Shown one piece after another: positions 2,230-60,664 of a stretch of DNA of 64,000 nucleotides (within the stretch, counting starts at the first letter, position 1; each line of letters begins with the position of its first letter). This DNA comes from an uncultured Actinomycetes bacterium (GTDB lineage: Bacteria; Actinomycetota; Acidimicrobiia; Acidimicrobiales; JACCXE01): NCBI GenBank assembly GCA_963718605.1, contig OY970363.1, positions 1,262,150 to 1,326,149 on the forward strand. The letters are read 5' to 3'. Position numbers and translations under genes: made by a program. The notes under the pieces are model-generated. The model did not search any database, was not told the DNA's origin, and was given only the letters and a program-made list of their open reading frames with translations.

Positions 2230-3009
2230 GTGACACCAGCACTCACAGCCGAACAGCGGCAGGCGTATAAGACCGACGGGTTTATCAAGATCGCGGGCTT
2301 CGCGTCGCAAACTGTCTGCGACGCGATGTTGCAGAGTGTGATCGAGATCTCCGAGCGCAAGGCGGCCGACGGGTGGGACGCGGGCGCCGGGCTGCTGCTA
2401 CCCGAGGCGAATCTGCGCGGCAACGAGGGCAAGCCGGCCGAACTCGTCTCAAAAATTTTCAAGCTGCACCGCGAGCCGGTATTCAACGAGTTCGCGGTGA
2501 GCGACGCTGTCACCGCGATCGCCGCGCAATTGATCGAGGAGCGCGACATCGACTGCTTCTTGTCGCAGTTCATCTTCAAGAACCCTGGCGCGTGGGGCCA
2601 GCCCTGGCACCAGGACAGCTACTACTTCCCGTTCGATCCGCACGGCCCCGTCGTCGGAATCTGGCTGGCCGTCACGGCGGCCACGCTCGAGAACGGTTGC
2701 CTGCACGTGTTGCCCGGCAGCAACCACCAGCCCATCCACGAACACATCGAGGACCGCCGCCCCGGCGCCAACCTCGGCTACGTCGAGATCGTCGATCACG
2801 ACATGAGCGACGCGATCCCCGTCCTCATGGACCCGGGCGATCTACTCGTCTTCGACAGCCACTTGATGCACCGCTCGACCGACAACGAGTCCGCCGGGCT
2901 GCGCGCCGCGATGGTGTACCACTACGCGCAGGCGGGCACGGTCGACCGTTCGAACAACTTGGTCAACGACTGGATGCCGGCGCGACGCTCCGAATCGGTC
3001 AGCGCCTGA
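2230..3009 (+). CDS. Phytanoyl-CoA dioxygenase (PhyH)-family Fe/2OG dioxygenase
   Basis: YKTDGFIKI, FIFKNPG..PWHQD, WLAVTAATLENGCL, GDLLVFDSHLMHRS: HxD...H triad. Confidence 0.9.
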   Translation: MTPALTAEQRQAYKTDGFIKIAGFASQTVCDAMLQSVIEISERKAADGWDAGAGLLLPEANLRGNEGKPAELVSKIFKLHREPVFNEFAVSDAVTAIAAQLIEERDIDCFLSQFIFKNPGAWGQPWHQDSYYFPFDPHGPVVGIWLAVTAATLENGCLHVLPGSNHQPIHEHIEDRRPGANLGYVEIVDHDMSDAIPVLMDPGDLLVFDSHLMHRSTDNESAGLRAAMVYHYAQAGTVDRSNNLVNDWMPARRSESVSA

Positions 3010-6000
3010 CGCGGACGTTGCCGTAGCGGTGCTGCGTCTCGGACACGGTTTGTTCGCGCGTCCAGTGCAGTAGCTCGAGCCGGCCGACAGAAGTGACGGG
3101 CGCGTCGTCGATCGGAATGCCGAGTTCGTCGCCACGCGTGTACACGGCGTCGCTCGTGCGGCCGAGCACGCGCACCTTCGACGGCTTGATCTCGGCGACA
3201 CGGTCGATGAAGCCGGCTTCGTCGTCGCGCGACACCACGATCGGCACACCCGCCACCTTCGCCGCGAGCCGACATCGCTCGACGTCGTCCGCGTTCGATC
3301 CGTCGCCCACCAGCACGACCACCGGTCGATAGAAGGGTTGGTACCGGAACACGTTCGACTCCGCGGTCAGGCCCGACGGATCGTGGTCGACGGCGAAGTG
3401 TTCCGCCCACGCCGCGCTGTACTCATCGAACTGTGCGCTGGCAACCGGCTGTGAGCCGGTTGCGAGCGCACAGTTCGTCGTTGGGGTGGTCCAGCGGCCC
3501 ATGGTGAGGACGTAGTTGGGACCACCGGCTTTGGCGGCGGGACCCATGACCGAGCGCTTCCAACCACCGAAGGGTTGACGGCGCACGATGGCGCCGGTGA
3601 TCGGGCGGTTGACGTAGAGGTTGCCGGCGTCGACGCGGTCGGTCCACCGCGCCACCTCGATCGGGTCAAGCGACTGCAGCCCCACGGTGAGGCCGAACGG
3701 TGTCGCGTTCTGCAACGCGATCGCGTGCTCGAGGTCGTCGGCGCGCATGATGCCGAGGACGGGCCCGAAGCACTCGGCGAAGTGAAACCACGAGTTGGGT
3801 CGCACGCCGACTTTCACGCCCGGCGTCCAGATTCGATCGTCGATCTGCGTGGGCTCGACCAGCCAGCGTTCGCCCTCGTCGAGCGTGGTGAACGCCCGCA
3901 AGAGGTTGCCGGCGGCCGGCCCGATGAGCGGGCCCATCGTCGTGTCGAGGTCGGTCGAGTCACCGACGCGCACACTGCGCACCGCGTCGGCCAGTCGTTC
4001 GAGGAACCGCGCGTCGTCGTACACCGAAGCTTCCAAGATCGCCAGGCTGGCGGCCGAGCACTTCTGCCCGGCGTGACCGAACGCGGATCGCACGATGTCG
4101 CGTACGGCGCCGTCGAGGTCGGCCGCCGCGGTGACGACGATTGCGTTCTTGCCACTGGTCTCGGCGTGCAGCGCCAGTTGCGGTTTCCAATTACGGAACA
4201 GCCTGGCCGTGTCCGACGAACCGGTCAGCACCACCGCGTCGACGTCGTCGTGGGTGATGAGGTGTTGGCCGGCGTCATCGTCGTCGCACGGCAGGTACTG
4301 CACGACGTCGCGTGGTACGCCACCGCGGCGACACTGCTCGACGATCATCTCGGCGATCAGCCGCGTCTCTGGTGCCGGCTTGAGGATGACCGTGCTGCCC
4401 GCGGCCAACGCCGCGAGCACGCCGCCGGCCGGAATTGCGTACGGGAAGTTCCACGGCGACGCGACCACCGTGACACGATAGGGCTCGAACACTGCACCCG
4501 CAGCAGTGAGCGCGTCGATGGTGGCGTTGGACGCCGCGTAATAACGCGCGAAGTCGATCGCCTCGGATACCTCGACGTCGCCCTCGCCCACTGTCTTGCT
4601 GGCGGTGAGCGCCATCGCCGCGATCGTGTCGCCGCGGTCGTGGCTCATCTCTTCGGCCACCCGTCGCAAGACCGCGGCCCGTTCAGCGGACGGGCGCGCC
4701 CGCCAGGCGTCGGCGGCGGCGACCGCCCGCGCGACACGCCGGTCCACATCGTCAATCGTCGGCGCGGCCCGGACCGATCGGCACGGCGCCCGCCAATGTT
4801 CGAGCCGGTCCCGAATCCACCGCCGGTTCACGGCCGACGTGAAGTCCGTGTCCGCCTCGTTCTCAAATTCCCGACTTCTGGCGTGTGGGGTCGGGAGGTC
4901 CCGACCCCACACGCCAAAAGTCGGGGGATGGGGGGTGGTGCGGTCCGCGGGTGGGCCGACGCGGCGGGGGCGCGAGGGCGGCAGGTGGCGGTCGTCGACG
5001 GCGCGGAGGAACCGTTGCTTTTCGGTTTCCCACGCGTCACTGCCGACCTCCATCGTGAACAGGGAGTGCAAGAAGTTCTCGGGTGTCGCGTTCTCGTCGA
5101 GGCGACGGGCGAGATATGCGACGGCCGGTTCGAGGTCGTCATGGGGCGTGGCCGGCCCGTAGAGCAACAGCGCGCCGGCGGCGTCGGCGACCGCGGCCGA
5201 CTGTGGCGGCGCCATGCCTTCGAGCATCTCGATCTCGAGTCGCGCCTCCGCGTGAAGGTGTTGGCGCAGCGTCAACGCCCACGCGATGTCGAACAGGTTG
5301 TGCGACGCGACGCCCACCCGCACCGCGTCGGCGAAGCGGGCGTCGAGCACCGCGTCGAGCATGCGCTTGTAGTTCGCATCGACGGCGGCCTTGTTGTCGA
5401 AGGGCGCCGCCGGCCATCGGTGCATCTCGGCGTCGACGTGTTCCATGGCCAAATTCGCGCCCTTGACGATGCGGATCTTGATGCGACCACCACCGGCGGA
5501 CCGGCGGGCGGCGGCCCACTCGCATAGGTCGACCAACGCCGCGTACGAGTCAGGCAGATACGCCTGCAACACGATGCCGGCGTCGAGGCCGATGAACTCG
5601 TCCTCGCACAGCGCCTGCTTGAACGCGGCGATCGTGAGATGCAGATCGCGGTACTCCTCCATGTCGAGGTTCACGAACTTCGGCGGGTCGGCCTTCGCCG
5701 CGGCGCGGTACAGCTCGCGCAGCCGCGCCACGATGCGCTCTACCGACGCATCGAATGCCAGCACGTCGAGCTGGCTGCAGATCGCGGAGATCTTCACCGA
5801 CACGTAGTCGACGTGGGGCCGCTCGAGCAGCGCGATCACATCGGCGACGCGCCGACGCGCCTCGTCTTCGCCCAGGATCGCCTCGCCGAGCAGGTTCACG
5901 TTGAAGTGCACGTGCTCGGACCGCGTCACCCGGCTACGCAAGTCGGGCTCTTCCGCCGGCAGCAGCACCGTCGCGGTTTCTTTGCGCACCCGCGCCGCCA

Positions 6001-6325
6001 CCATCGGCATCACAACGTTCGGCACGAACCGCGACGCCAAGCCGCCGGCGTGCAACAGCACACGGTCGAGCGGGCCGAGGAACGGGGGCAAACCTTCGCC
6101 GACGAGTTCACGGAAACGCGCCGCGGCCCGTGCGTGATCGTCGATGCGCAACACCTCGTCGGCGAGCTCGAGCGTGAACAGCCGGCTGCGGTCGTCGCCC
6201 AGCATCCGGGCCAGGCGGCGCCGATGACGACGCTGGCTCCGGGTTTCGATTTTCGACGCGGCCCGCAGCAACTCGGCGGCCAGTTCGACCGCTTCTGCCG
6301 CCAGGACCTCGTCGCGCGTACTCAC
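2999..6325 (-). CDS. putA: Bifunctional proline dehydrogenase / P5C dehydrogenase
   Basis: NVNLLGE, FVNLDMEEY, IRIVKGANL, YLARRLDEN (PRODH); SPWNFP, HAETSGKN, GQKCSA, ECFGP (ALDH); 1108 aa. Confidence 0.96.
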   Translation of the reverse strand: MSTRDEVLAAEAVELAAELLRAASKIETRSQRRHRRRLARMLGDDRSRLFTLELADEVLRIDDHARAAARFRELVGEGLPPFLGPLDRVLLHAGGLASRFVPNVVMPMVAARVRKETATVLLPAEEPDLRSRVTRSEHVHFNVNLLGEAILGEDEARRRVADVIALLERPHVDYVSVKISAICSQLDVLAFDASVERIVARLRELYRAAAKADPPKFVNLDMEEYRDLHLTIAAFKQALCEDEFIGLDAGIVLQAYLPDSYAALVDLCEWAAARRSAGGGRIKIRIVKGANLAMEHVDAEMHRWPAAPFDNKAAVDANYKRMLDAVLDARFADAVRVGVASHNLFDIAWALTLRQHLHAEARLEIEMLEGMAPPQSAAVADAAGALLLYGPATPHDDLEPAVAYLARRLDENATPENFLHSLFTMEVGSDAWETEKQRFLRAVDDRHLPPSRPRRVGPPADRTTPHPPTFGVWGRDLPTPHARSREFENEADTDFTSAVNRRWIRDRLEHWRAPCRSVRAAPTIDDVDRRVARAVAAADAWRARPSAERAAVLRRVAEEMSHDRGDTIAAMALTASKTVGEGDVEVSEAIDFARYYAASNATIDALTAAGAVFEPYRVTVVASPWNFPYAIPAGGVLAALAAGSTVILKPAPETRLIAEMIVEQCRRGGVPRDVVQYLPCDDDDAGQHLITHDDVDAVVLTGSSDTARLFRNWKPQLALHAETSGKNAIVVTAAADLDGAVRDIVRSAFGHAGQKCSAASLAILEASVYDDARFLERLADAVRSVRVGDSTDLDTTMGPLIGPAAGNLLRAFTTLDEGERWLVEPTQIDDRIWTPGVKVGVRPNSWFHFAECFGPVLGIMRADDLEHAIALQNATPFGLTVGLQSLDPIEVARWTDRVDAGNLYVNRPITGAIVRRQPFGGWKRSVMGPAAKAGGPNYVLTMGRWTTPTTNCALATGSQPVASAQFDEYSAAWAEHFAVDHDPSGLTAESNVFRYQPFYRPVVVLVGDGSNADDVERCRLAAKVAGVPIVVSRDDEAGFIDRVAEIKPSKVRVLGRTSDAVYTRGDELGIPIDDAPVTSVGRLELLHWTREQTVSETQHRYGNVRVRR
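4870..4925. repeat. Near-perfect 27-bp-arm palindrome (REP-like) within the putA coding sequence
   Basis: CCCGACTTCTGGCGTGTGGGGTCGGGA 4870-4896 versus TCCCGACCCCACACGCCAAAAGTCGGG 4899-4925; 26/27 match, and the mismatch is a G-U pair in the mRNA. Confidence 0.9.
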
Positions 6326-7536
6326 GTCTGTAGCGCGTGAACGCTTTCGACGACGCGATCAATTCCCCACTGCAGATCGACGTCGCTGATCGTCAGTGGC
6401 GGCGACAGGCGCAGCGTCTGGCCGTGCGTGTCTTTGGACAGCAGGCCGCGGGTCATCAGGTCTTCGGCCATGGCGCGAGCCGTACCCACTTCGGGGGACA
6501 GGTCGACACCGGCCCACAGGCCCCGGGTGCGCACGGCTTCAACGCCGAGGCCACGCAAGTCGAGCAACGCGTCGCGCAGCATCGGCTCGAGCGCGGCGGC
6601 GCGCGCGAACAGCGAACCGTCGCGGACTAGTTCGATTACGGCCATACCGACGGCGCACGCCAGCGGGTTGCCGCCGAAGGTCGAGCCGTGCGAGCCCGGC
6701 GTGAGCACGTCCATGACGTCCCAGTTCGCCACGCACGCGGAAAGCGGCATGATGCCGCCGCCGAGCGCCTTGCCCAGGATGTAGATGTCGGGCACGACGG
6801 CGTCGTGGTCGCAGGCGAACAGCGAACCGGTGCGACCGAAGCCGCTCTGGACCTCGTCGGCCACGAGCAACACGTTGTATGCCGCGCACATGTCGCGCAG
6901 GCCGGTCATGAAGCCGGGCGGCGGGATCAGCACGCCGGCCTCGCCCTGAATCGGCTCGACCAGCACCGCGGCGACCGTGTCATCCATGGCGCGCTGCACG
7001 GCGGCGAGATCGCCGTAGGGCACGCGCCGAAAACCCGGAGTGAACGGGCCGAAGCCGTCCTTCGAGTCGTCATCGCTCGAGAAGCCGACGATCGTGGTGG
7101 TGCGCCCGTGGAAGTTGCCGTCGAACACGATGACCGTGGCCGCGTTGGGCGCGATGCCTTTGCGTTCGTAGCCCCAACGCCGCGCGATCTTCAACGCGGT
7201 CTCGACCGCTTCCGCGCCGGTGTTCATCAACACCGCGGCCTCTTTGCCGCAGAGTTCGGTGAGCGCCGCGGAGTACGGGCCGAGGACGTCGTTGGAGAAC
7301 GCGCGCGAGGTCAGCGTCAACTTGTCGAGCTGCGCGTGCGCGGCCGCGACGAGAGCGGGATGACGATGCCCGAAGTTCATCGCCGAATACGCACACAGCA
7401 TGTCGAGATAGCGGTGGCCGTCGACGTCGGTGACCCACGAACCTTCGCCGGTTGTAAGCGTCACCGGCAACGGCTTGTAGTTGTGCGCGGCGTGGCGCCA
7501 TTCGAGGTCAACCGGCGTGGCCAACAGATCGGTCAT
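6322..7536 (-). CDS. rocD: Ornithine--oxo-acid aminotransferase
   Basis: AAHNYKPLPV, YLDMLCAYSAMNFGH, NTGAEAVETALK, NFHGRT, ADEVQSGFGRTG, LGKALGGG. True start taken as MTDLL at 7536 (ATGA overlap with the upstream stop); the longer ORF-track start is spurious. Confidence 0.93.
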   Translation of the reverse strand: MTDLLATPVDLEWRHAAHNYKPLPVTLTTGEGSWVTDVDGHRYLDMLCAYSAMNFGHRHPALVAAAHAQLDKLTLTSRAFSNDVLGPYSAALTELCGKEAAVLMNTGAEAVETALKIARRWGYERKGIAPNAATVIVFDGNFHGRTTTIVGFSSDDDSKDGFGPFTPGFRRVPYGDLAAVQRAMDDTVAAVLVEPIQGEAGVLIPPPGFMTGLRDMCAAYNVLLVADEVQSGFGRTGSLFACDHDAVVPDIYILGKALGGGIMPLSACVANWDVMDVLTPGSHGSTFGGNPLACAVGMAVIELVRDGSLFARAAALEPMLRDALLDLRGLGVEAVRTRGLWAGVDLSPEVGTARAMAEDLMTRGLLSKDTHGQTLRLSPPLTISDVDLQWGIDRVVESVHALQT

Positions 7537-8387
7537 CGAACGCCTCCCCGTAGTTCGAGCGTGCAGCACTTCACGCTGCCGCCCGACTTGCGAAATTCCG
7601 ACAGGTCCACGGGCACTGGCTCGTAACCGCGGGCGCGCAATGCCGACGCGAAGTTCGTCGCGCCCGCGGACATCACCACGTGGTGACCGTCGGAGAACGC
7701 GTTGCAACCGAACTCGGCCGCGTCGGCATCGTCCACCAACACCGCGTGCGGGAAGCGGGCGCGCAACCACTCGCGCGACCCGTCGTCAAAGGCCGATGGG
7801 TTGTACGCCACGTTGTCCTCCGACAGCACCGCCAGCGCGGTATCGAGGTGGTAGTAGCGCGGGTCGACGAGACGCAACGACACGACGTCGATACCGAGAC
7901 GGGCCCGAACCTCTTCGTGCGACGCGATGTCGGTGCGAAAGCCGAACCCGGCGAGCACTTCGTCGCCGACCGTCGCGAAGTCGCCCTCGCCTTCGTTCAC
8001 GAACGCCGCCTCGCCGTGGGACACGAACCCATTGGCCGCGAACCATTTCGCGTACGGATCCTCTTCGCCCTGGCGCTCCGCGAACTTGAAGCGGGCGGGA
8101 TACACCTGACCGTCGATCACGAGCCCGCTGTTCGCGGCAAACACCATGTCGGGTAGGCCGCGCACCGGCTCGATGAACTCGATCGCGTGGCCGAGCTCTT
8201 CGTAGACGCGCACGAGCCGGTCCCACTGCTTGAGCGCCCGCCGATGATCAACCGGGATCGTCGTGTGCATCCACGGATTGATCTCGTAGGACACCGCGAA
8301 ATACTCGGGGCGACACATCAACAAATGACGGGGGCGGTATGCGTCACCCGCCGTTTCACCGTGGCGGACAAGCGCATCAACAGACAT
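7533..8387 (-). CDS. Amidinotransferase/DDAH-fold enzyme (arginine dihydrolase-like or dimethylargininase-like)
   Basis: LMCRPEYFAVSYEINPWM, LPDMVFAAN, EGEGD, YYHLDT, KSGGSVKCCT with the catalytic Cys. Confidence 0.88.
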   Translation of the reverse strand: MSVDALVRHGETAGDAYRPRHLLMCRPEYFAVSYEINPWMHTTIPVDHRRALKQWDRLVRVYEELGHAIEFIEPVRGLPDMVFAANSGLVIDGQVYPARFKFAERQGEEDPYAKWFAANGFVSHGEAAFVNEGEGDFATVGDEVLAGFGFRTDIASHEEVRARLGIDVVSLRLVDPRYYHLDTALAVLSEDNVAYNPSAFDDGSREWLRARFPHAVLVDDADAAEFGCNAFSDGHHVVMSAGATNFASALRARGYEPVPVDLSEFRKSGGSVKCCTLELRGGVR

Positions 8388-8497
8388 ACCTCGACGGTAC
8401 GGTCGGGGTTCGACGCGAACAACCCGTCAACGCTGCGTTCTATGCTCGTTCTAGTGTGCGAACGTGCCTATTCAAGCAAGAACGTTGCGTCTGAACG

Positions 8498-8938
8498 ATG
8501 GCTGACGCAATTGATCGGAACATCATCTCCCTCCTCGTCGAAGACGCCCGGCGCTCGTTCAACGACATCGGAGCGCGGGTGGGCCTCTCGGCGCCGGCGG
8601 TCAAGCGACGGGTCGACCGCCTCGAACAGGACGGCGTGATCCGCGGGTACGCCGCCATCATCGACCGGTCGATCGACGGCACCACGATGGAGACCCTCGT
8701 CGAGCTGTACTGCGGGGGCCGCACCGCGCCCGGCGACATCCGCTCGATCGTCGAGCAGTTCGACCAGGTGGTCGAGGCGTTCACGGTGAGCGGCGACGCC
8801 GACGCGGTATTGATGTTGCGCACGCGTGACATCGCGGAACTCGAAGACACGCTCGAACGCATCCGCGCCCACAAGGCGGTCGACCGCACCAATTCCACGA
8901 TCGTGCTCTCGCGGCTCTTGGACCGACCGCACGCGTAG
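8498..8938 (+). CDS. Lrp/AsnC family transcriptional regulator
   Basis: DAIDRNIISLLVEDARRSFNDIGARVGLSAPAVKRRVDRL HTH plus RAM domain; divergent from the amidinotransferase operon. Confidence 0.93.
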   Translation: MADAIDRNIISLLVEDARRSFNDIGARVGLSAPAVKRRVDRLEQDGVIRGYAAIIDRSIDGTTMETLVELYCGGRTAPGDIRSIVEQFDQVVEAFTVSGDADAVLMLRTRDIAELEDTLERIRAHKAVDRTNSTIVLSRLLDRPHA

Positions 8939-9025: not shown

Positions 9026-9874
9026 TTACGGCGTCGACTTCAGCGTTGACGTGACGTCGCCGTTGATCGGCCGGTTGAACGCCGTGCCCGAAAACGTCTG
9101 GTGACTGGTGCGCGGCACCCGCAATGAGATGGCCCACTGCTCCACGTCGTGCAGGTTCACGTTGATGCTGCCCGATGCGTTCTTCGCGTTCACGGTCGAG
9201 TCGATGCCGACGTTGTCGCCGCTGCGCGATGTGATCCGGCCGTTGAGCGTGGCTGTCAGCTGACCAATCGGCGTCGAACACGTCCCGTTGCCGCTGAACG
9301 TTTTGCCCGGCGTTGGCGGCCACGGCGGCACCGGGACGCCGTTGCCGAACGTGCAACTCGCCGTCGCGCCGTTAAAGACAATGTTGGCGGCCGTGATGTA
9401 CGGCCCGTCGCCGCGGAACGCGTAGGTCAACACGAGCGGCGATTTATTCGGGTCGTAGTACCGCTTGAAGGACTGCGTCGATCCGCCGCTCACCACCAGC
9501 GTGCCGTTGGCGGGCACGTTTCCGTCGGGCGTCGTGCCGCTCTGGGCGTACCCGTAGGTGCCTTCCTTGGCCGGGCCGGGCACCGCGTTCGGATCCGCCA
9601 CCGGCTTGGCGGTTGTCGGGGCAGCCGCCACCGGCTTGGCGGTAGTCACCGACACGGCGCCTTTCTTCGTGGTCGCGGTCGCGCCGCTGACCGCGCTCGT
9701 CGACGTCGTGTCAGATCCGACGTCGAGGGTCGAGTCAGAGGACTCGGCCGTCGTCGTCGACTTGTCCGACGAGACCTTGTTGTCGTCCTTGCCGCCCCCG
9801 CCGCACGCGCCGGCGACGAGGGCCAGGGAGAACAGGAGCGCGCCGAAGCGGAGTCGGTTTCGCGTAAACGCCAT
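9026..9874 (-). CDS. Putative lipoprotein of unknown function with a Thr/Ser-rich linker
   Basis: MAFTRNRLRFGALLFSLALVAGACGGGG lipobox, a T/S/A-rich tether, then a beta-rich domain with two Cys. Confidence 0.8.
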   Translation of the reverse strand: MAFTRNRLRFGALLFSLALVAGACGGGGKDDNKVSSDKSTTTAESSDSTLDVGSDTTSTSAVSGATATTKKGAVSVTTAKPVAAAPTTAKPVADPNAVPGPAKEGTYGYAQSGTTPDGNVPANGTLVVSGGSTQSFKRYYDPNKSPLVLTYAFRGDGPYITAANIVFNGATASCTFGNGVPVPPWPPTPGKTFSGNGTCSTPIGQLTATLNGRITSRSGDNVGIDSTVNAKNASGSINVNLHDVEQWAISLRVPRTSHQTFSGTAFNRPINGDVTSTLKSTP

Positions 9875-9944
9875 GCGGCCAGCTTGCCAGTCCGCGCCCT
9901 CCAGCGGGCACCGCGGCGCCAGATGTGCGAAAGGATGCAGTTTG

Positions 9945-10773
9945 ATGACCGACTCGATCGTGCGCCGCCGCGCCACCGACGTCCGCTTGTTCGGGGCCGC
10001 CGGCTATGCGCTCCTCCTCCAGGTCGGCCACCCCACCATCGCGGCCGGCGTGCGCGATCACTCGAACTACGCGATCGATCCGTGGGGTCGTTTCTTCGGC
10101 ACGGCCGACTTCGTCAACCTGATGCTGTACGGCGACAGCGGCGCCGTCGACGAAGCGGTCGCCCATTTGCGCGACATGCATCGACGTATCCGCGGCACCG
10201 ACCTCGACGGCACGAAGTACTCCGCGCTCGAACCCGGGGCGTACGCGTGGGTGCACGCCACGCTGGCCGAGGCGATCGTCCGCGGCCACCACGTGTTCGG
10301 CACCGAACTGACCAAGGCGCAGAAAGACGAGTTCTGGCAAGAGTGGTTGAGCATGGGATTGCGCATGGGCATCCGGCGCGGCGATCTGCCCGACACGTGG
10401 GACGGGTTCAGTCGTGTACCGCGACGAGATGATCGACAACGTGCTCGGCCCCAACGACGTCACCGAGGCCGTGCACACGAAGGCGGCCAGCGCCACCGGC
10501 GGTTCGCCGTTCCCGTGGCTGCCCGCACCTCTCTGGGGACTGGCGGGTCGGCCGCTCGGCCGCTACGGCACGTTCCTCGCTCACGGCACCATGGGCGCCA
10601 AGCTGCGCGACAAGTTCGACATCCCGTGGACGCCCCGCCAGCAAGCGCGCTTCGCGCGGATCGCCGCATTGCACCGCGGCGCCCGGCCGCTCATGCCCAA
10701 GTCGTTGCGGCACTTTGGTCCGCTCGCGCTCAAGATCCGCTCCCGCGAAATCGCCGCGGGGCCCTTCAGCTGA
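9945..10773 (+). CDS. Oxygenase MpaB / DUF2236 family protein (one +1 frameshift near 10410, probably a sequencing error)
   Basis: ALLLQVGHPTIAAGVRDHS, DPWGRF, LRDMHRRIRG, YSALEPGAYAWVHATL. Deleting A10410 gives WDGFVVYRDEM and joins ORF 10414..10773. Confidence 0.8.
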
Positions 10774-12169
10774 TGGACGCCACCTTCCGCGGCCCTTACG
10801 CCGACGGGCCGCCGCCGAGCGCGCTCGAGATCAACGCGCCCGACGTCACCAAGGCCGGCCCGCGCGACCTGCTGCGCATGTTCGTCGTGCAGCTCACGAT
10901 CTCGTTGTGCGTCCTGCAAGCGGTCGCGGTGTGGGTCGTCCGCCGTCGTGGTCGCAGCTTGACCCGCGCCGCGTCGGACGGCCTCGTCGACGCGTTCGAA
11001 CGCCTCGGCCCCACCTTCGTGAAGGCGGGCCAACTGATCACCTCGTCGCCTGGCGTGTTTCCCGAGCCGCTAGCCGAGGCGTGCAAGCGCTGCCTCGACG
11101 AGGTGCCGCCGTTCCCGTCGGCCGAAGTGCGCCGCGTGATCGAGGAAGACCTCGGCGCGCGCATCGAAGACATCTTCAAGTCCTTCGACGACGTGCCGCT
11201 CGCGTCGGCGTCGATCGCGCAGGTGCACGCGTGTGTGTTGCGGGACGGAACGCGAAGCGGTCTTGAAAGTGCAACGCCCGGGCGTGCGAAAGACGATCAA
11301 CAGCGACCTCAAGAACCTCTACAAGATCGCCAAGCTCGTCGGGCGCTCGAAGAAGGCGGACCGGCTGCAGCCGACCAAGCTCATCGAGGACATGCACCTC
11401 ACCGCGAACCAAGAGGTGAACTGCGCACTCGAAGCGCATCGCCAATCGCAGTACCGCAAGAACATCGACGCCTTCGGCGACAATCCCGACGTCACCGCGC
11501 CCGAGGTGTACTGGAACTACTGCGGTCCGCGCGTGGTCTGCATGGAACGCATGTACGGCGTGCACGATCGACTACTTCCCGGCGATCGCGGACCGCAACA
11601 TCGACGGCGAGACGCTCTTGCGCAAAGGCATGAAGGTCGCGTTCGAGGCGATGCTGGTGCACGGGCCGTTCCACGGCGACGTGCACGCCGGCAACATCTG
11701 GGTGCTCGACGACGGACGGGCCGCGTTCCTCGACTTCGGGCTGATGGGCGAGCTGCCACCGCAGTGGCGCAAGCTCATGACGGACCTGCTGCGCACCGTG
11801 CAGATCGACGACAACTGGGCGCGCGTCGTGCGCAACTACAAGGACGTCGGCGTGTTGCCCGAGGACATCGGCACCGACGAAGAAGTCGGCATGCGCCTCC
11901 AGATGGTGATGACACCGATGATGGAAACCGCCGCGGGCGACGTCGATCTTGCCGACGTGATGAAGCAGCAGATCGACCTGGCCGAATCGATGGGGGCAAA
12001 GGCGCCGCAAGAGTTGATGCTGGTCGCGAAGCAGGTTTTCTACTTCGAGCGCTACGTAAAGGGCCTCGCCCCGAACTACGTGATGATCAAGGACCTGTTC
12101 CTCACCAAGAACGTGATCCCGGAATCCAAGGACGTCGCCGCGGCAAAGGGCATCGCCTTCCCGCCGTAG
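10773..12169 (+). CDS. ABC1/UbiB (AarF) atypical kinase (two +1 frameshifts near 11250 and 11564)
   Basis: LGPTFVKAGQ (KxGQ), PLASASIAQVH, AVLKVQRP, FHGDVHAGN, LDFG spread over three successive frames; TGATG overlap with the upstream gene. Confidence 0.85.
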
Positions 12170-12178
12170 TCTCGGGAG

Positions 12179-13569
12179 ATGGCCAATAAGCCGCTTGTTG
12201 TAGAGAACCCCGCCACCGGGGAACCGATCGGCGAAGTCGCCACCTTCACCGTTGACGAAATTCCCGGCATTGTTTCTGCGGCCGACGCCGCGCAAAAGCA
12301 GTGGGCGAAGACGCCGCCGCGCGAGCGCGCCGAAGTGCTGCGCGCGTGTTGGGCCGCGATGCTCGCCAACCAGGACGACCTCGCGGCCACGATCACCGGC
12401 GAGAACGGCAAGCCGCTGCGCGACAGCCTCGGCGAAGTCACGTACGCCGCCGAGTTCTTCCGCTGGAACAGCGAGGAAGCAGTTCGCCTCGACGGCGACG
12501 TCGGCGACTTGCCCAACGGCAACGGTCGCAAGATCGTGTTGCGCCAGCCGATCGGCACCGTGCTCGCGATCACGCCGTGGAACTTCCCCGCCGCCATGCT
12601 GACGCGCAAGTTGGCGCCGGCGTTGGCCGCCGGGTGCGCGGTGGTAGCGAAGCCCGCGTCACCGACACCGATGACGGCGGTCGCGTTGGCCGAGCTCTTC
12701 CGCGCCGCCGGTTTACCCGACGGGTCTATTGCACGTCGTGCCGACGCTGGACACCGGCGGTGTCGTGCGGGCCGCGCTCGCGCAAGAGCCGATCCGCAAG
12801 CTGTCGTTTACGGGCTCCACCGAAGTCGGCGCGAAGCTCCTCGAGCAAGCGGCCGCCCGCGTCGTGAGCTGTGCGATGGAGTTGGGCGGCAATGCGCCGT
12901 TCATCGTTCTCGGCGACGCCAATGTCGACGACGCCATCGAAGCCGCGATGGTCGCGAAGCTGCGTCACAACAGCGAGACGTGCACGGCGGCGAACCGCTT
13001 TTACGTGGCCGAGTCGCTCGTCGATGCATTCACCGACGCATTGGTGGCGCGCTTCGAAAAGCTGGTGCTCGGCGACGGTACGGATGACGCCACCGATCAC
13101 GGTCCCCTCATCAACCCAGGCGCGGTCGAAACGGTCGCACGGCTTTGTGCGCGCCGCCGTCGACGGTGGCGCCACCGCAGTGACCGGTGGTGGACCCGTG
13201 GACCGACCCGGTTCGTTCTTCGCGCCCACGGTCCTCACCAACGTGAAGCCCGGCAACCCGATCTTGCGCGAGGAGATCTTCGGACCGGTGGCGCCCATCG
13301 TGGCCGTGCCCGATGACGACGACGCGATCTTGGCGCTCGCCAACGACTGCGAGGTCGGTCTCGCCGGCTACGTCTGCGGTGGCGACTTCGGGCGCGCCCT
13401 ATCGGTGTCGGAACGACTCGAGGTCGGCATGGTCGGACTCAACCGCGGTCTCGTGTCGGACCCGGCGACACCGTTCGGCGGCGTGAAGGAGTCCGGCATC
13501 GGACGCGAGGGCGGCCACGAAGGCGTGCTCGCCTTCACCGAAGCCAAGCTCATCGTCACTGCGTGGTGA
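12179..13569 (+). CDS. NAD(P)-dependent aldehyde dehydrogenase, succinate-semialdehyde-dehydrogenase-like (two +1 frameshifts near 12723 and 13137)
   Basis: ITPWNFP, KLSFTGSTEVG, MELGGNAP, ETCTAAN, EEIFGP, PFGGVKESGIGREGG. Confidence 0.88.
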
Positions 13570-13570
13570 A

Positions 13571-14901
13571 TTGAGTACGGAGTTCCTGACGGCTGACGAG
13601 GCCGAGCAACGCCAAGCGCAACTCGCGGGTGCACTGCAGCGACGCGGCGCTGAACGAGCGCGTCGCGCTCGTCACGTCGAACGGCGCGCTAACGGCGGAC
13701 CGGCTGTGCCTCATCGCGGCGGCAATGCGCATTGGCGTGGCGCCCGTCGTGCTGCACGCCGCGCTCACCGCCGCGAGAGCGCGACGTCCTGCTGAAGGAC
13801 GCCGAGCCGGACTTCGTGATCGACGACCGCGTGCTGGCCGAACTCGTCGACGATCACCACGGGCCCGCAGCCGACCTGGCACCCGCCCCGCTCTGCCGGC
13901 CGTTGCTCTACACGTCGGGCACCACGGGCGAACCCAAGGGCGTGTGGTCAGGCGTGCTCGACGAAGCCGACGCGCTCGCGCTGGCTAACGAGGAGCGCGA
14001 CCTGTGGGCCTTCGATGCGCAGGATCGCCACCTCGTCTGCGGCACCGCCCACCATTCCGCGCCCCTGCGCTTCTCCATCGGGACGCTGCTCGCGGGCGGG
14101 TCCGTGATCTTGCCCGGCAAGTTCGACGCGCCGACCCAACTGATGGCCATCGATCAGTTCGAGCCGACCTCGAGCTTCATGGCGCCCGTCCACCTCCACC
14201 GCCTGCTCGATCTCGCCCACGACGACCCGGACTCGTTCACGTCGTTTCGTCTCGTTGCGCACGCGGGCGCGCCTACGAGCGACGCCGTGAAGCGGCGTGC
14301 GATCGCCGCGTTTCCGACCGACACCGTGTGGGAGTTCTACGGCGCGACGGAAGGGCAGTTCACTGCGTGCGCCCCGCACGAGTGGCTCGAACGCCCGGGC
14401 ACGCTCGGGCGCGCCCGGCCCGGGCGCGCCATGCGCGCCGATGCGGAGGGCACGCTGTGGTGCCGTCCACCGAGCTACGCGCGGTTCACCTATTGGAACG
14501 ACAAGGCGAAGACCGCGGCGGCCTGGCAGGGCGACGAGTTCACCGTGTTCGATCTCGGTCGCGTCGATGAAGACGGCTACGTCTATCTGGATGGCCGCCG
14601 CGACGATCTCATCCTCAGTGGCGGCGTGAACGTCTACCCGGCCGAGGTGGAACGCGTGCTGCTCGAAACGCCCGGCGTGACCGACGCCGCCGTGTTCCCC
14701 CGCACCGACGACGGCTGGGGTCAACGGGTCTGTGCCGCGTACGTCGGTGACGCGCCGTCCGCGGCGGTTACCGCCGCGTTGCGCGCTGCGCTCGCCGGCT
14801 ACAAGCAGCCGAAAGAACTGCACCAGGTTGGTGAGATCCCGCGGACCGCGAACGGCAAGGTGCGCCGGTCCCTACTGTCCACCGAACTCGGGCTCGACTG
14901 A
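13571..14901 (+). CDS. Acyl-CoA synthetase / AMP-binding protein (two +1 frameshifts near 13645 and 13770)
   Basis: LLYTSGTTGEPKG, WEFYGATEG, FDLGRVDEDGY, GRRDDLILSGGVNVYPAEVE, PRTANGKV. Confidence 0.85.
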
Positions 14902-14948: not shown

Positions 14949-15074
14949 ATGACGCTTCTAGCGATGTGGTTCCTCTCGTCCGTGCTCGCAGCCATGGTGC
15001 TGTCGTGGGTCATGGGCGACAGCTACGAACTCGACCTCAAGGCGCTCGCTAATTCGGCGGCGCTAGGCGCGTAA
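14949..15074 (+). CDS. Possible 41-aa small membrane protein
   Basis: Manual translation MTLLAMWFLSSVLAAMVLSWVMGDSYELDLKALANSAALGA*; hydrophobic N-terminal 22 aa, purine-rich upstream region; below the ORF-track size cutoff. Confidence 0.45.
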   Translation: MTLLAMWFLSSVLAAMVLSWVMGDSYELDLKALANSAALGA

Positions 15075-15669
15075 CGCCCGACGCCTCGAAGGCGTCGGCC
15101 ACCAGTGACGTGAGGTGACCCACCAGTGTCTTGCGCGGCATCGACCGCGTCGACGCCCACCAGTCCACCGCGGCGAACACTGCGCCCGGTAACGCATGAC
15201 CCCACGTCTCGCCCATCGCGGGATCCCGCCCCACCGCGAACAACGACGCGGAGAACGAAGACGCGAACATGGCGCCGAGGGCCGTGTTCATCACGCCGGG
15301 CTCGGGCCCGCTGGCTTCGAGGAAGAAGCGAAACAACTCGGGCTCCTTCTCCACGAACACGCAGAAGATGTTGATGCCTTTTGCGACGGCTTCCCTGAGC
15401 GGGACCGACTCAACGAACACGCTGCTGATCGAGGGCACCAAGTCCGCGGCGTAACGCGCCACCAGCGCGGAGGCCACGCCGGCCTTGTCGCCGAAGTGGT
15501 CGTACAAAATCGGCCGCGATACTCCGGCGGACTCGGCCAGTTCGGACATCGACACATCGGGGCCGTGCTTACGGATTGCGAGCACGGCGGCGTCGAGCAA
15601 CTCCTCGCGGCGCTCAGCCGGGTCCACCCGCGGCCCGCGGGGCCGTCCGACGCGTCGTGCCTCAGTCAT
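15049..15669 (-). CDS. TetR/AcrR family transcriptional regulator
   Basis: RREELLDAAVLAIRKHGPDVSMSELAESAGVSRPILYDHFGDK HTH; start taken at MTEARR. Confidence 0.93.
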   Translation of the reverse strand: MTEARRVGRPRGPRVDPAERREELLDAAVLAIRKHGPDVSMSELAESAGVSRPILYDHFGDKAGVASALVARYAADLVPSISSVFVESVPLREAVAKGINIFCVFVEKEPELFRFFLEASGPEPGVMNTALGAMFASSFSASLFAVGRDPAMGETWGHALPGAVFAAVDWWASTRSMPRKTLVGHLTSLVADAFEASGVTRLAPPN

Positions 15670-15688: not shown

Positions 15689-15728
15689 TTGACCAATAAA
15701 GCGACAGTGTGTAACTTACACAGTGTCG
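15689..15728 (+). promoter_or_regulatory. Sigma-A-type promoter (TTGACC-N17-TAACTT) overlapped by a palindromic TetR-type operator
   Basis: -35 at 15689-15694, -10 at 15712-15717; CGACAGTGTGTAA-C-TTACACAGTGTCG at 15702-15728, 12/13 symmetric. Confidence 0.75.
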
Positions 15729-15746
15729 GATAAGTGGAGGACACCA

Positions 15747-16898
15747 GTGAGCACAGACATGTCGAGCGACGCCGAGATTCTCGGCCGCGACGAAATGAAC
15801 GACCTTGACGCGATCTTGGCGGTCAAGCCCGACTGGGACGCGACGATTCGCGAGGTCCAGAACAACGCCGACACGATCTTCACGTGGGACTACGAGCGGT
15901 CCCGCACGCCGCTTTCCAAGCTGTACGAGAAGGCGAAGACCGCGCAGTGGAATGGCACGACCGATCTGCCGTGGGAACTCGACGTCGACCAAGAGAAGCT
16001 CGCGGCGATGTCGCCCGACGCCAATCCCGAAATGCTCGCGGCGATGGGCATCGATCTCACCGGCACGCCGATGGAGAAGTGGACCAAGAAAGAGTGGACC
16101 GAGATCGGTATCCACCAGCAGAACTTCATGCTGAGCCAGTTCATGCACGGCGAGCAGGGCGCGCTGATCTGCACCGCCAAGATCGTCGAGACCGTGCCGT
16201 GGATCGACGCCAAGTACTACGCGGCTACGCAGGTCATGGACGAGGCCCGACACGTCGAAGTGTTCGCCCGTTACCTCGACGAGAAGCTCGACGGCCACTT
16301 TCCCCTAAACCCGCACCTCGGGATGCTGCTTGACGACATCATCAGCGACTCGCGCTGGGACTTCACCTACCTCGGCATGCAGATCATGGTCGAAGGCTTG
16401 GCGCTCGCGGCGTTCGGTCTCGTGCAAGCGATCACACCCGAGCCGCTGCTCAAGCAACTGCTCCGCTACGTCATGAGCGACGAGGCTCGCCACGTCGCGT
16501 TCGGCGTGTTGTCGCTGAAGGAGTTGTACGCCGGGATGACCTCGGCCGAGCTCGCTGAGCGCCAAGAGTTCGCGTTCGAAGCGGCGGTGCGGCTGCGTGA
16601 CCGGCTCGTCGCCGGTGAAGTCTGGGAACGCATGGGCGTCGATCCGAAGGTCGCGATCACCGCGATGAACCCGCCCGGCTCGAACAAGAACGACGACCCG
16701 TTCCAGCAGATGCTGTTCTCGAAAATCGTGCCGAACCTGTCGAAATTGGGCCTGCTCGACGCGAACGACGGTTGGCTGCGCAAGAAGTTCGACGCGATCG
16801 ACCTCACACAATTCGAGTCGTGGACCGACACCGAAATCGAATACGAACTGCTCGACGCCGTCACGCAGGATCGCGAAGCCGCAGCCGAATCCGCATAA
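15747..16898 (+). CDS. Ferritin-like diiron-carboxylate protein (AurF / aldehyde-decarbonylase-like)
   Basis: EQGA...QVMDEARH...MVEGLA...SDEARH: two E...DExxH pairs; GGAGG SD before GTG at 15747. Confidence 0.85.
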   Translation: MSTDMSSDAEILGRDEMNDLDAILAVKPDWDATIREVQNNADTIFTWDYERSRTPLSKLYEKAKTAQWNGTTDLPWELDVDQEKLAAMSPDANPEMLAAMGIDLTGTPMEKWTKKEWTEIGIHQQNFMLSQFMHGEQGALICTAKIVETVPWIDAKYYAATQVMDEARHVEVFARYLDEKLDGHFPLNPHLGMLLDDIISDSRWDFTYLGMQIMVEGLALAAFGLVQAITPEPLLKQLLRYVMSDEARHVAFGVLSLKELYAGMTSAELAERQEFAFEAAVRLRDRLVAGEVWERMGVDPKVAITAMNPPGSNKNDDPFQQMLFSKIVPNLSKLGLLDANDGWLRKKFDAIDLTQFESWTDTEIEYELLDAVTQDREAAAESA

Positions 16899-58505: not shown

Positions 58506-60664
58506 GGCGGCGGCGATCCCGAAGCGGACTCCTGCATCCCGGCGGACTCGGTGGTCGGGGTCTGCGAGACCGACGTTGTGGTCGGGCCGTACGGCGGGGC
58601 GGTCGTCGATGCATGCCCGCCGCGAGTCGTGACCTTCGGCGTGCTCGTTCCCGATCCGCTCGCATCGCCGACCGACGTCGTCGGCGCGGGCGCAGGCCGA
58701 TAGGACGAGCGGCTGGTGCCGAGCACCTTGCCTGGGAATCGCGTGACGGTCGGGAACGCGTCGAGCGTTTGTCCCTTGGTCACCGCGCTCATGAAGCGTC
58801 GCCAGATGTCGGCGGGCACCGAACCTCCGGTGACAGGCCTACCGCCGCGGAACTTCGCCAGGGTGCGCGCGTTGCCTTCGGGATAGCCCATCCACACCGC
58901 GGTCGTCAGCTTGGTGGTCGAGCCCACGAACCACGCGTCGCCGTAGTCCTGCGTTGTGCCGGTCTTGCCCATGAGCGTGCCGGGGCCTGCGGTCTTCAAA
59001 CGTGCGCCCACGCCGGTGCCGCGTTCGATTACCTGGGTCAAGGCGGTGTTGACGGTGTCGGCCTGCTCGCGCGACAGCACGCGCACGTGCGCCGGTTCTG
59101 AGCGGAACAGCACGGCGCCGTCGGCGGTCTCGATTTTGCTGATGAACTGCGGAGCGATCCGCTCGCCGCGACGGGCCAGGGTCGAATACGCCGACGCAAT
59201 GTCGAGCGGCGACACCTCCACGGTGCCGAGCACGAGTGACGCCACCGACCGCAATGGCGCGGTGATGCCGAGGTCTTTGGCCGTCGCCGCGAGGTGATCG
59301 GCGCCGACTGCGACCTCGGCCTGCGCGTACACCGTGTTGATCGAGTTACGCGTGGCGTCGATGAGGTTGACGCTGCCGCCAAACGCGGCGTCGTCGTAGT
59401 TGTGCACGGGCCAGTCCTTGCCCGCGTCTGCCTTGGGCAGCACGATCTCGGCCGGCGCCGGGAACGCCGATTCAAGCGAATAGCCCTCTTTGACGATGTC
59501 GGCCAGCAGAAACGGCTTGAACGTCGAGCCGGGCTGGCGGCCTTTGCCGCCACCCTCCCGCCCGACTGCGAGGTTCACGTTCGAGGTGGCGAAGTCGCGG
59601 CCGCCGACCATGGCGCGCACGCGGCCCGCGTCATCGATCGCGACGAGCGCGCCCGAGGGGTCGCTGCCTCGGTTGAGGAGGCCGTACACCGCGTTGTATG
59701 CGGCGCGCTGCGCGCCGATGTCGATGTTCGTGGTGACGCGTAGCCCGCCGCCGAGCGCGACCTTCTCGCCGTAGTCGCGCACGAGGATGCGCCGCACGTA
59801 GTCGACGACGTATTCGGTACCGGCCTCCGCGGCGACCACACGCGGGGCGGCGTTGCGCTTGGTCACGACGTAGCTCGCGATGGGTTGGGTCTCGACCTCG
59901 GCGAGGTCAGCGCGGGTGATGTCGTGCGTGTCGACCATCGACGACAACGTGCGGTGCCGGCGCGCCGTCGCGGTCACGGGGTCGCGGGCGACGTCGGCCG
60001 ATTCCGGAGAACGGATGAGCCCCGCCAGGTAGGACGCCTCGCGCAGGCCGAGTTGGGTGACGTCGCGACCGAACCACGCCTGGGACGCGGCCTGCACGCC
60101 GTACGCGCCCCGTCCGAAGTACACGGTGTTGAGGTAGCGCTCGAGCAGCTCGTTCTTGGTCAGCTCCCGCTCGAGCTTCACCGCGAGCACCGCTTCTTTC
60201 AGCTTGCGCCAGACCGTGCGCTCCCGACCGACGTAGGTGTTCTTTACGTACTGCTGCGTGATCGTCGAGCCGCCTTGGAGATGACCACCGCGTAGGTCGT
60301 TCACAGTCGCGCGGGCCAGGCCGATCGGGTCGACGCCACCGTGTTCGTAGTAGTGCCGGTCCTCCGTGGCCAGCACGGCTCGGATCACCACTTTGGGGAC
60401 GGCCTTCAGCGAAACAGATACGCGGTTCTCCGTGCCGCTCAGCGTGGCGAGCCGGCTCCCATCAGCAGAAAACAGGAAGGTGGTCTGCGCGGGCGGCCCC
60501 GTGTCGGGCAACGGCACCCGCGACAGCACGAACAGCACGCCGGCGGCCGCGGTGAAGGCCAGCAGCCCAAACAGGAACAGCACGCGGCGGTAACGCCAGA
60601 CCCAACTGCGCTTCTTGCGGCGCGATGCGGGGCGGCGTTTAGCTGATTGCGGTCGCCCGGGCAT
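58502..60664 (-). CDS. ponA: Class A penicillin-binding protein (transglycosylase/transpeptidase)
   Basis: ATEDRHYYEHGGVD, GGSTITQQYVKN, RKLKE, YLNTVYFG (TG); QPGSTFK, SIN, GKTG (TP). Confidence 0.93.
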   Translation of the reverse strand: MPGRPQSAKRRPASRRKKRSWVWRYRRVLFLFGLLAFTAAAGVLFVLSRVPLPDTGPPAQTTFLFSADGSRLATLSGTENRVSVSLKAVPKVVIRAVLATEDRHYYEHGGVDPIGLARATVNDLRGGHLQGGSTITQQYVKNTYVGRERTVWRKLKEAVLAVKLERELTKNELLERYLNTVYFGRGAYGVQAASQAWFGRDVTQLGLREASYLAGLIRSPESADVARDPVTATARRHRTLSSMVDTHDITRADLAEVETQPIASYVVTKRNAAPRVVAAEAGTEYVVDYVRRILVRDYGEKVALGGGLRVTTNIDIGAQRAAYNAVYGLLNRGSDPSGALVAIDDAGRVRAMVGGRDFATSNVNLAVGREGGGKGRQPGSTFKPFLLADIVKEGYSLESAFPAPAEIVLPKADAGKDWPVHNYDDAAFGGSVNLIDATRNSINTVYAQAEVAVGADHLAATAKDLGITAPLRSVASLVLGTVEVSPLDIASAYSTLARRGERIAPQFISKIETADGAVLFRSEPAHVRVLSREQADTVNTALTQVIERGTGVGARLKTAGPGTLMGKTGTTQDYGDAWFVGSTTKLTTAVWMGYPEGNARTLAKFRGGRPVTGGSVPADIWRRFMSAVTKGQTLDAFPTVTRFPGKVLGTSRSSYRPAPAPTTSVGDASGSGTSTPKVTTRGGHASTTAPPYGPTTTSVSQTPTTESAGMQESASGSPPP

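Follow-up and report, generated by a model that had tools for sequence, protein, structure and literature searches.

In the present study, we analysed a 64,000-nucleotide (nt) stretch of DNA (hereafter the window; C1:1262150-1326149) from the single-contig, 4.10-Mb genome (66% G+C) of an uncultured soil actinobacterium. Four genes on the plus strand at 9945-14901 were assigned by Pfam, in order, to an oxygenase of the MpaB/Lcp family, an ABC1/UbiB protein, an aldehyde dehydrogenase (ALDH) and an acyl-coenzyme A (acyl-CoA) ligase (Table 1). A first-pass annotation had described four co-oriented genes of these families, separated by junctions of -1, 9 and 1 nt, as a candidate pathway for cleaving prenyl side chains; the layout was confirmed by Pfam and the coordinates, and the family assignments were right. 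The stop codon of mpaB (TGA, 10771-10773) shares its A with the start codon of abc1 (ATG, 10773-10775), abc1 ends at 12169 and is followed after 9 nt by the ATG of aldh at 12179, and a single nucleotide separates the stop of aldh (13569) from the TTG start of lig (13571). Compared with two relatives of the same genus, G002 and G009, the window contained five extra bases at 13567-13571, which replace the GTGGTGA start/stop overlap of the relatives with the 1-nt gap and the TTG start; this difference could be real or could be a further assembly artefact of the kind described below. On the upstream side, a divergent lipoprotein gene has its Met codon near 9874, as read from the translation. A scan for promoters and terminators gave no signal exceeding that of shuffled sequences.

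Table 1. Features of the mpaB-abc1-aldh-lig locus (window coordinates).
Feature	Coordinates	Strand	Basis
mpaB, putative b-haem C=C-cleaving oxygenase (MpaB/Lcp, DUF2236), ~276 amino acids (aa)	9945..10773	+	Pfam PF09995
abc1, ABC1/UbiB atypical kinase-like ATPase, ~465 aa	10773..12169	+	Pfam PF03109
aldh, NAD(P)-dependent aldehyde dehydrogenase, 462 aa, succinate-semialdehyde-dehydrogenase-like clade	12179..13569	+	Pfam PF00171
lig, short AMP-forming acyl-CoA ligase, ~443 aa	13571..14901	+	Pfam AMP-binding + AMP-binding_C
Divergent intergenic region, 70 nt, between the lipoprotein gene (- strand) and mpaB	9875..9944	.	tblastn synteny, L014 open reading frames
TetR regulator gene, convergent with lig, divergent from the diiron gene	15049..15627	-	tblastn, 86% identity to the G009 orthologue
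AurF-like ferritin-fold diiron oxygenase, 391 aa, stand-alone	15723..16898	+	Pfam PF11583

As deposited, all four genes are broken, and none forms an intact open reading frame. A three-way DNA alignment with G002 (locus L019) and G009 (locus L014), in both of which the four genes are intact, revealed single extra bases at exactly seven sites: one in mpaB (~10410) and two each in abc1 (11252 and 11563), aldh (12721 and 13138) and lig (13652 and 13774). The +1 errors suspected in the first-pass annotation are real features of the deposited sequence, to be read through as seven single insertions; no in-frame stops or deletions were found in the four genes in this alignment. With codon changes polarised by G009 as the outgroup, the branch leading to the window showed 171 synonymous, 41 non-synonymous and 0 stop changes (non-synonymous to synonymous ratio, N/S, of 0.24), and the branch of the intact sister G002 showed 187 synonymous and 53 non-synonymous changes (N/S of 0.28). 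Seven neutral insertions should be accompanied by many non-synonymous and nonsense changes, and no such pattern was seen.

To place these breaks in the context of the whole genome, a Viterbi frame tracker based on codon position was run over the entire assembly. The tracker found approximately 100 strong same-strand frame switches, 89 of which were of the +1 class, and the assembly was found to contain roughly 100-250 single-base breaks of this class, distributed in patches (for example, at C1:312809, 313229, 759548, 1737208, 1828211, 3335907, 3464436 and 3499180). Genes hit by such breaks include asd, a DEAD-box/Helicase_C helicase gene (twice within 420 nt) and several transporter genes. The +1 bias is partly a detection bias, as a +1 shift leaves the old frame open for longer, and an approximately threefold +1 excess persisted after correction for this effect. 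When eight sampled events were translated across the break, which was marked by an X, six gave one Pfam domain spanning it, and the spanning cases included DEAD and Helicase_C in one helicase, BPD_transp_2, ABC_membrane, HI0933_like, SBP_bac_5 and Nitrate_red_gam. In a seventh read-through, that of the essential gene asd, the NAD-binding and dimerisation domains lay on either side of the break in different frames. One sampled event classed as strong resembled two adjacent genes rather than a frameshift. The event at window position 58714, located in the tail of a large exported protein whose C-terminus is rich in Pro, Thr and Ser, also did not look like a real frameshift.

Because of the substitution pattern, the +1 breaks throughout the genome and the domains that span them, we regard the seven breaks with high confidence as insertions introduced during long-read assembly and not as gene decay, and the apparent pseudogenes of this assembly as mostly assembly errors. 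The named relatives that we retrieved included many long-read metagenome bins ('MFD....bin'). Neither form of the MpaB break site, with the extra base or lacking it, had a match in the metagenome contigs scanned, and these contigs therefore hold no independent copy of the species; a search of 120 database homologues for a near-identical intact MpaB gave 85% identity at best. Programmed frameshifting or alternative decoding was rejected, as the seven sites have no common motif and the extra base is absent in all relatives. Users of this assembly should expect approximately 100 or more single-base insertion errors and should not take its pseudogenes at face value.

The MpaB protein matched the MPAB_Lcp_cat profile (PF09995) with an E-value of 1.5e-55 and a score of 189 bits (cut-off of 23) over profile positions 10-230 of 231. 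An AlphaFold2 (AF2) model of the G009 orthologue was all-helical, with a pLDDT of 89.3 and a pTM of 0.88. A Foldseek search of the PDB revealed LcpK30 in its open and closed forms (5O1L/5O1M) as the sole meaningful matches, with a probability of 1.00, TM-scores of 0.57-0.60 and sequence identities of 16-19%, and the model has the globin-like all-helical fold of the Lcp catalytic domain. Four residues (D55, R76, H79 and H104) did not vary among 18 orthologues and were also found in the window MpaB, upstream of its frame break. The active-site residues of Lcp include the haem ligand His198 (PMC5522427), and in Nro1, an MpaB-family nitrile-rubber oxygenase from Gordonia, the proposed haem histidine H104 is reported to superpose on Lcp H198 (PMC12724181). 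H104 is likewise the candidate haem histidine of the operon MpaB; the profile alignment of MpaB to Lcp starts two residues past this position. With LcpK30 as the sole structural match and H104 invariant, the earlier placement of MpaB among the Lcp haem oxygenases held, and its family, fold and conserved active-site residues suggest that the enzyme binds haem and cleaves C=C bonds.

We also found that the N-terminal RRR...hydrophobic stretch of MpaB was a conserved core helix (residues 13-27, pLDDT of 84-95) rather than a twin-arginine translocation (Tat) signal, and the enzyme is therefore intracellular. No N-terminal extension that could serve as a signal was found in the 276-aa protein. A secreted, Lcp-like rubber oxygenase was considered and rejected, as MpaB lacks a signal peptide and is too small (276 aa versus 371-407 aa for Lcp chains).

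The ABC1 protein matched PF03109 (9.6e-63, 212 bits), and its motif set was complete in the translation: FVKAGQ (KxGQ), ASASIAQVH (the Ala-rich loop), VLKVQRPG, HGDVHAGN and LDFG. The translation also contained an N-terminal hydrophobic helix, LLRMFVVQLTISLCVLQAVAVWVV. The operon protein shares with UbiB and COQ8 the PF03109 domain, KxGQ, the Ala-rich loop, the catalytic motifs and membrane association, and its nearest PDB entries were the mycobacterial ABC1/MABP-1 proteins and COQ8. UbiB is tied to the Ubi hydroxylases, and COQ8 to COQ6 and the diiron protein COQ7, which are oxygenases acting on membrane isoprenoid lipids. Whereas the partners in those systems are flavin or COQ7 hydroxylases, the operon ABC1 is accompanied by a putative haem dioxygenase and by a diiron protein of the AurF-like type. 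Scores against the UbiB equivalog models were below cut-off (TIGR01982, 295 versus 487.55 bits; PRK04750, 247 versus 667 bits), and ABC1 is thus not a UbiB equivalog. Actinobacteria make menaquinone and are not known to make ubiquinone. Members of the UbiB/COQ8 family have an ATPase activity that is activated by lipids and phenols (bioRxiv 10.1101/149823).

ALDH matched the Aldedh profile (PF00171) with an E-value of 2.2e-145 and a score of 485 bits over positions 9-460 of 461, and its translation contained the catalytic Glu and Cys and the GxTxxG cofactor motif (ELGGNAP, ETCTAANR and GSTEVG). The best PDB match was E. coli GabD (3JZ4, 1.2e-120), and the score against the succinate-semialdehyde dehydrogenase (SSADH) model TIGR01780 (GabD) was 498 bits, under the cut-off of 646. 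By these profile scores, the enzyme is a member of the wider SSADH clade that falls below the subfamily cut-off. The ligase matched AMP-binding (PF00501, 1.6e-25) and AMP-binding_C (PF13193, 4.8e-13), and the core motifs of ANL enzymes were present in its translation (YTSGTTGEPKG, FYGATEG, DGRRDD and NGKVRR). This short, generic enzyme reached no NCBIfam equivalog, with a best score of 224 versus 701 bits, and its nearest PDB entries were malonyl-CoA synthetase (4FUQ), FadD5 and FadD13, at approximately 1e-37.

To understand how the locus is conserved, we compared it with same-genus genomes using tblastn synteny. The four-gene order and both the MpaB/ABC1 and ALDH/ligase overlaps were kept in G002, G003, G005 and G009; in G001 and G007, which have short contigs, the order was kept as far as the contigs reach, and the metagenome contig L021 also keeps it. 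MpaB and ABC1 abut or overlap in every member of the genus examined, and protein identities to G009 across the genus were 65-86%. The arrangement is more than chance co-orientation, because the same order and the MpaB-ABC1 start/stop overlap were kept in every same-genus genome with a sufficient contig. When scored in G001, G002, G003, G005, G006, G007 and G009 as far as the contigs reach, together with L021, the neighbourhood comprised, in order, an ornithine-type aminotransferase, an amidinotransferase, AsnC, the lipoprotein, an optional TetR, MpaB, ABC1, ALDH, the ligase, a TetR on the minus strand and the diiron protein. In most same-genus genomes, the optional TetR gene overlaps the start of mpaB (L014:3765-4403). 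G003 is without the downstream TetR/diiron pair. We also observed an amino-acid catabolic block directly upstream in the window (2999-8938), with PutA, a class-III aminotransferase, an amidinotransferase and an AsnC regulator, which is syntenic genus-wide.

Beyond the genus, we examined 80 loci of MpaB orthologues from named genomes, mostly metagenome-assembled genomes (MAGs) of Solirubrobacterales and Acidimicrobiales. TetR was adjacent to MpaB in 45 of the 80 loci, ALDH was present in 16 and a ligase in 13. ABC1 lay within 6 kb of MpaB in 14 loci, compared with a chance expectation of approximately 1.6% (from five ABC1 genes in 4.1 Mb), and nine of these 14 loci were outside the genus, in at least five arrangements (L061, L069, L076/L092, L077 and L104). 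The order in L069 is ligase-MpaB-TetR-ABC1, and L092 likewise has a ligase beside MpaB. In two Acidimicrobiia MAGs (L076:2910-5701 and L092:2919-5851), MpaB-TetR is transcribed in the opposite direction, away from a tandem pair of ABC1 genes, of which one is orthologous and the other divergent. L022 and L061 contain TetR-MpaB-MpaB-ABC1. The clearest lipid-uptake context was found in a Solirubrobacteraceae MAG (L104:2335-12624), in which genes for TetR, an acyl-CoA dehydrogenase, ABC1, MpaB, two MlaE and three MlaD proteins are co-oriented, so that the MpaB-ABC1 pair adjoins an Mce-type lipid transporter. In the Solirubrobacterales, MpaB or MpaB-TetR is directly followed, within a conserved block, by a different ALDH of approximately 530 aa, which is unrelated to the operon ALDH.

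MpaB thus has repeated, independent links to TetR, ABC1, ALDH, CoA ligases and lipid uptake, and outside the genus never to all of them together. The MpaB-ALDH and MpaB-ligase adjacencies in other lineages support the oxygenase-ALDH-CoA ligase logic of the first-pass annotation. Its reading had been made to depend on conservation of the neighbourhood in other genomes, and the outcome was divided: the MpaB-ABC1 pair recurred in nine further loci, whereas the full set was confined to the genus and L021, and ABC1 orthologues elsewhere occurred without MpaB. A constant neighbour for the ABC1 orthologues of other families was sought and not found, the contexts being TetR, CtaG, an F420H2-dependent quinone reductase, LigD, MerR and SDR.

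Downstream of the ligase gene, we found a TetR gene and a diiron oxygenase gene that the first-pass annotation had missed. The G009 orthologue of this TetR contains the TetR_N and TetR_C_32 domains, and it is the sole TetR left at the locus in the window genome. The score of the diiron protein against PF11583 (6e-07, 29.3 bits) was just under the cut-off of 29.6 bits. The protein is 52% identical to a diiron domain (genome positions 1768497-1769348) that belongs to a 782-aa fusion of ABC1 with an AurF-like diiron oxygenase (C1:1768437-1770785), encoded approximately 442 kb beyond the window end. This fusion is the second-closest ABC1 paralogue of the operon ABC1 in the window genome, and it overlaps by 4 nt with a preceding TetR gene (region C1:1768437-1771489). 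Because the stand-alone diiron protein is a paralogue of the C-terminal domain of the fusion, it probably belongs to the same functional island; with its own TetR gene, it is also a probable member of the same ABC1-served system.

More than 100 clusters of homologues of this fusion, each of approximately 780 aa with PF03109, PF27536 and PF11583, were present in Acidimicrobiales, one of them in the cultured species Actinospongicola halichondriae; they are annotated merely as 'AarF/UbiB family protein', and a literature search found no paper describing an ABC1::diiron fusion. L042 contains an ABC1 gene that faces a TetR gene and has a diiron gene after it. The fusion provides strong in silico evidence that ABC1 proteins in Acidimicrobiales work with oxygenases, and the coupling of MpaB and ABC1 therefore looks functional and not accidental. 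Together, the recurrent MpaB-ABC1 arrangements and the fusion support the ABC1-oxygenase link that had been proposed earlier.

We compared the operon with known systems that contain related enzymes. In the published model of rubber degradation, a TetR-controlled Lcp and an aldehyde dehydrogenase lead into β-oxidation (PMC8235351), and the earlier statement that no pathway of this kind had been described was overstated; the ABC1 partner and the cytoplasmic setting alone are new. The Lcp enzymes (LcpK30 and Lcp1VH2) are DUF2236 b-haem dioxygenases of the same family as the operon MpaB and cleave C=C bonds to an aldehyde and a ketone (PMC5522427, PMC8235351). TetR-family regulators are present in both the Lcp pathway (LcpR) and the MpaB loci. 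In the Lcp pathway, the aldehydes pass into β-oxidation after the action of aldehyde dehydrogenases (or OxiAB), which is the same logic as that proposed for the operon, and the pathway includes Mce-type uptake, as does the setting of the pair in L104. Lcp, at approximately 400 aa, carries additional domains at both termini as well as a Tat signal and attacks its polymer substrate extracellularly, whereas the operon MpaB is small, signal-less and distant in sequence. The position of the distal Lys167 of Lcp appears to be occupied by an invariant histidine (H79). The Lcp pathway also lacks an ABC1 partner and is encoded at scattered loci, in contrast to the single tight operon found here.

The fungal enzymes MpaB and MpaB' of mycophenolic-acid biosynthesis belong to the same family (PF09995). 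In that pathway, cleavage of the farnesyl C=C bond is followed by CoA activation and β-oxidative shortening of the chain, and the same cleave-oxidise-activate logic is found in the shortening of the mycophenolic-acid side chain. Unlike the operon protein, fungal MpaB is bound to the endoplasmic reticulum membrane and is biosynthetic, acts on an aromatic meroterpenoid and has no ABC1 and no separate ALDH; no genes of a prenylated aromatic pathway were found at the operon locus. The cleavage of the prenyl (farnesyl) C=C bond by fungal MpaB is oxidative (PMC12724181). The bacterial alkene-cleaving haem oxygenases of the MpaB class, namely Nro1 of Gordonia sp. J1A and the class reported by Purwani et al. 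2024, have approximately 300 aa, are signal-less and membrane-associated, carry the proposed proximal histidine H104 and give aldehyde products (PMC12724181). Their substrates are synthetic rubber or aryl-alkenes, and none of them has been described as part of an operon that also encodes ABC1, ALDH and a ligase.

We propose with moderate confidence that the four genes form a functional operon that is intact in nature, is controlled by a TetR-type regulator and encodes an intracellular module for the breakdown or turnover of a hydrophobic unsaturated molecule. In this cytoplasmic or membrane-surface module, the membrane-anchored ABC1/UbiB-type ATPase would extract or present a lipid-soluble substrate, and MpaB, the b-haem dioxygenase translationally coupled to it, would use O2 to cleave a C=C bond into an aldehyde and a ketone or second aldehyde. 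As their families and context suggest, ALDH would then convert the aldehyde to the acid, and the ligase would form the CoA thioester for β-oxidation. The general scheme, in which C=C cleavage leads through aldehyde and acid to the CoA ester and ABC1 serves the oxygenase, is supported. The families, the fold, the conserved residues, the synteny, the recurrent associations and the fusion were observed, whereas haem binding, C=C cleavage, the role of ABC1, the flow of intermediates and, above all, the nature of the substrate are inferred. The best reading of the operon is that of Lcp/MpaB oxygenase catabolism moved inside the cell, with a UbiB-family partner added. Nothing at the locus points to the prenyl chain or quinone that the first-pass annotation had favoured as the substrate; an isoprenoid chain (of a quinone, polyprenol, carotenoid or imported oligo-isoprenoid) is a reasonable candidate, to which we give roughly a quarter of our belief.

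Several observations weigh against the catabolic proposal. The ALDH-ligase pair accompanies MpaB-ABC1 only in the genus (and L021), L022 and L061 having the latter pair without it, and unrelated genes lie between ABC1 and ALDH in G003 and G005, the insert of G003 being a 321-aa gene with a weak match to an AbiEi antitoxin family (L013:5959-6924). Among the loci examined, the full four-gene set was absent outside the genus and its nearest relatives, and only parts of it recurred. The SSADH-like ALDH, closest to GabD, and the MatB-like ligase, closest to malonyl-CoA synthetase, hint that short oxo-acids or dicarboxylates may fit better than long lipid aldehydes. ABC1 may have a housekeeping role, because its orthologues in 13 other Acidimicrobiia genomes (45-54% identity) had no MpaB within 1.5 kb and had variable neighbours. 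In the window genome and its sister G002, the upstream TetR is cleanly absent, with 70 nt left, and the operon is the densest cluster of strong breaks in the genome, five in one 10-kb bin, for which we have no explanation. The restricted occurrence of the ALDH-ligase pair, the foreign genes, the relationships of the two enzymes and the amino-acid block just upstream would also be in keeping with two unrelated modules that are merely neighbours. MpaB-ABC1, with TetR and the diiron protein, would then modify or maintain an endogenous membrane lipid in a non-catabolic manner, and ALDH-ligase would be a generic pair for short oxo-acids or dicarboxylates (for example, converting succinate or malonate semialdehyde to the acid and the CoA ester) whose downstream placement in the genus is fortuitous; in that case, the amino-acid block may be the true partner of the ALDH. 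However, co-transcription is implied by the spacing of only 9 nt between ABC1 and ALDH and by the overlap of ALDH and ligase in the relatives, independent MpaB-ALDH and MpaB-ligase adjacencies occur in other classes and families, and the ALDH is below the SSADH cut-off. We consider such a juxtaposition possible, though somewhat unlikely.

The same chemistry might also act on a non-lipid substrate, such as a small aryl-alkene or soluble alkene of the phenylpropene or stilbene type, with ABC1 as a bystander or regulator. TetR control and a soluble, signal-less enzyme would suit the catabolism of small molecules, and trans-anethole oxygenase works with an aromatic aldehyde dehydrogenase. Bacterial haem oxygenases of the MpaB class that cleave alkene C=C bonds have been reported (Purwani et al. 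2024, as cited in PMC12724181). A bystander role is difficult to reconcile with an ABC1 that has a membrane helix, is translationally coupled to MpaB and recurs with it in several arrangements, or with the Mce lipid transporter of L104, and no aromatic-ring catabolic genes were present nearby; we therefore judge a soluble alkene to be an unlikely substrate. Least probable of all is that the operon is truly dead in the organism, a pseudogene cluster with seven real frameshifts. The clustering of the breaks, the loss of the upstream TetR in this lineage and the position of the insertions, none of which lies in a homopolymer in the alignment, would fit with decay. Against this, N/S was no higher than on the intact sister branch (0.24 versus 0.28), stops and deletions were absent, all seven events were +1, similar breaks occur in asd, the helicase gene and the transporter genes, and many of the named relatives are long-read metagenome bins, which together make a dead operon very improbable.

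If the catabolic proposal is extended further, the ABC1/UbiB ATPases of Acidimicrobiia and Thermoleophilia would be dedicated helpers of lipid oxygenases, and the operon would be the first bacterial case of oxidative shortening of a membrane prenyl lipid, which we regard as doubtful. Were it true, the locus would be a natural minimal system for a general role of UbiB, namely, handing a membrane isoprenoid or other lipid (such as the menaquinone side chain) to an oxygenase. The characterisation of bacterial MpaB-type haem oxygenases has just begun, on rubber and alkene substrates, and the biochemical role of UbiB/COQ8 is a long-standing question. The locus offers a compact test of whether UbiB proteins serve oxygenases on hydrophobic substrates, as one genome contains a conserved and translationally coupled MpaB-UbiB pair, downstream processing of aldehyde and acid, and a UbiB::diiron-oxygenase fusion. 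The general association of ABC1 with oxygenases, rather than prenyl cleavage, is probably the most valuable element. We also observed a variant of the partner protein in L061, where ABC1 (L061:6904-8727) has 607 aa and an N-terminal pair of CBS domains, which suggests nucleotide or ligand sensing.

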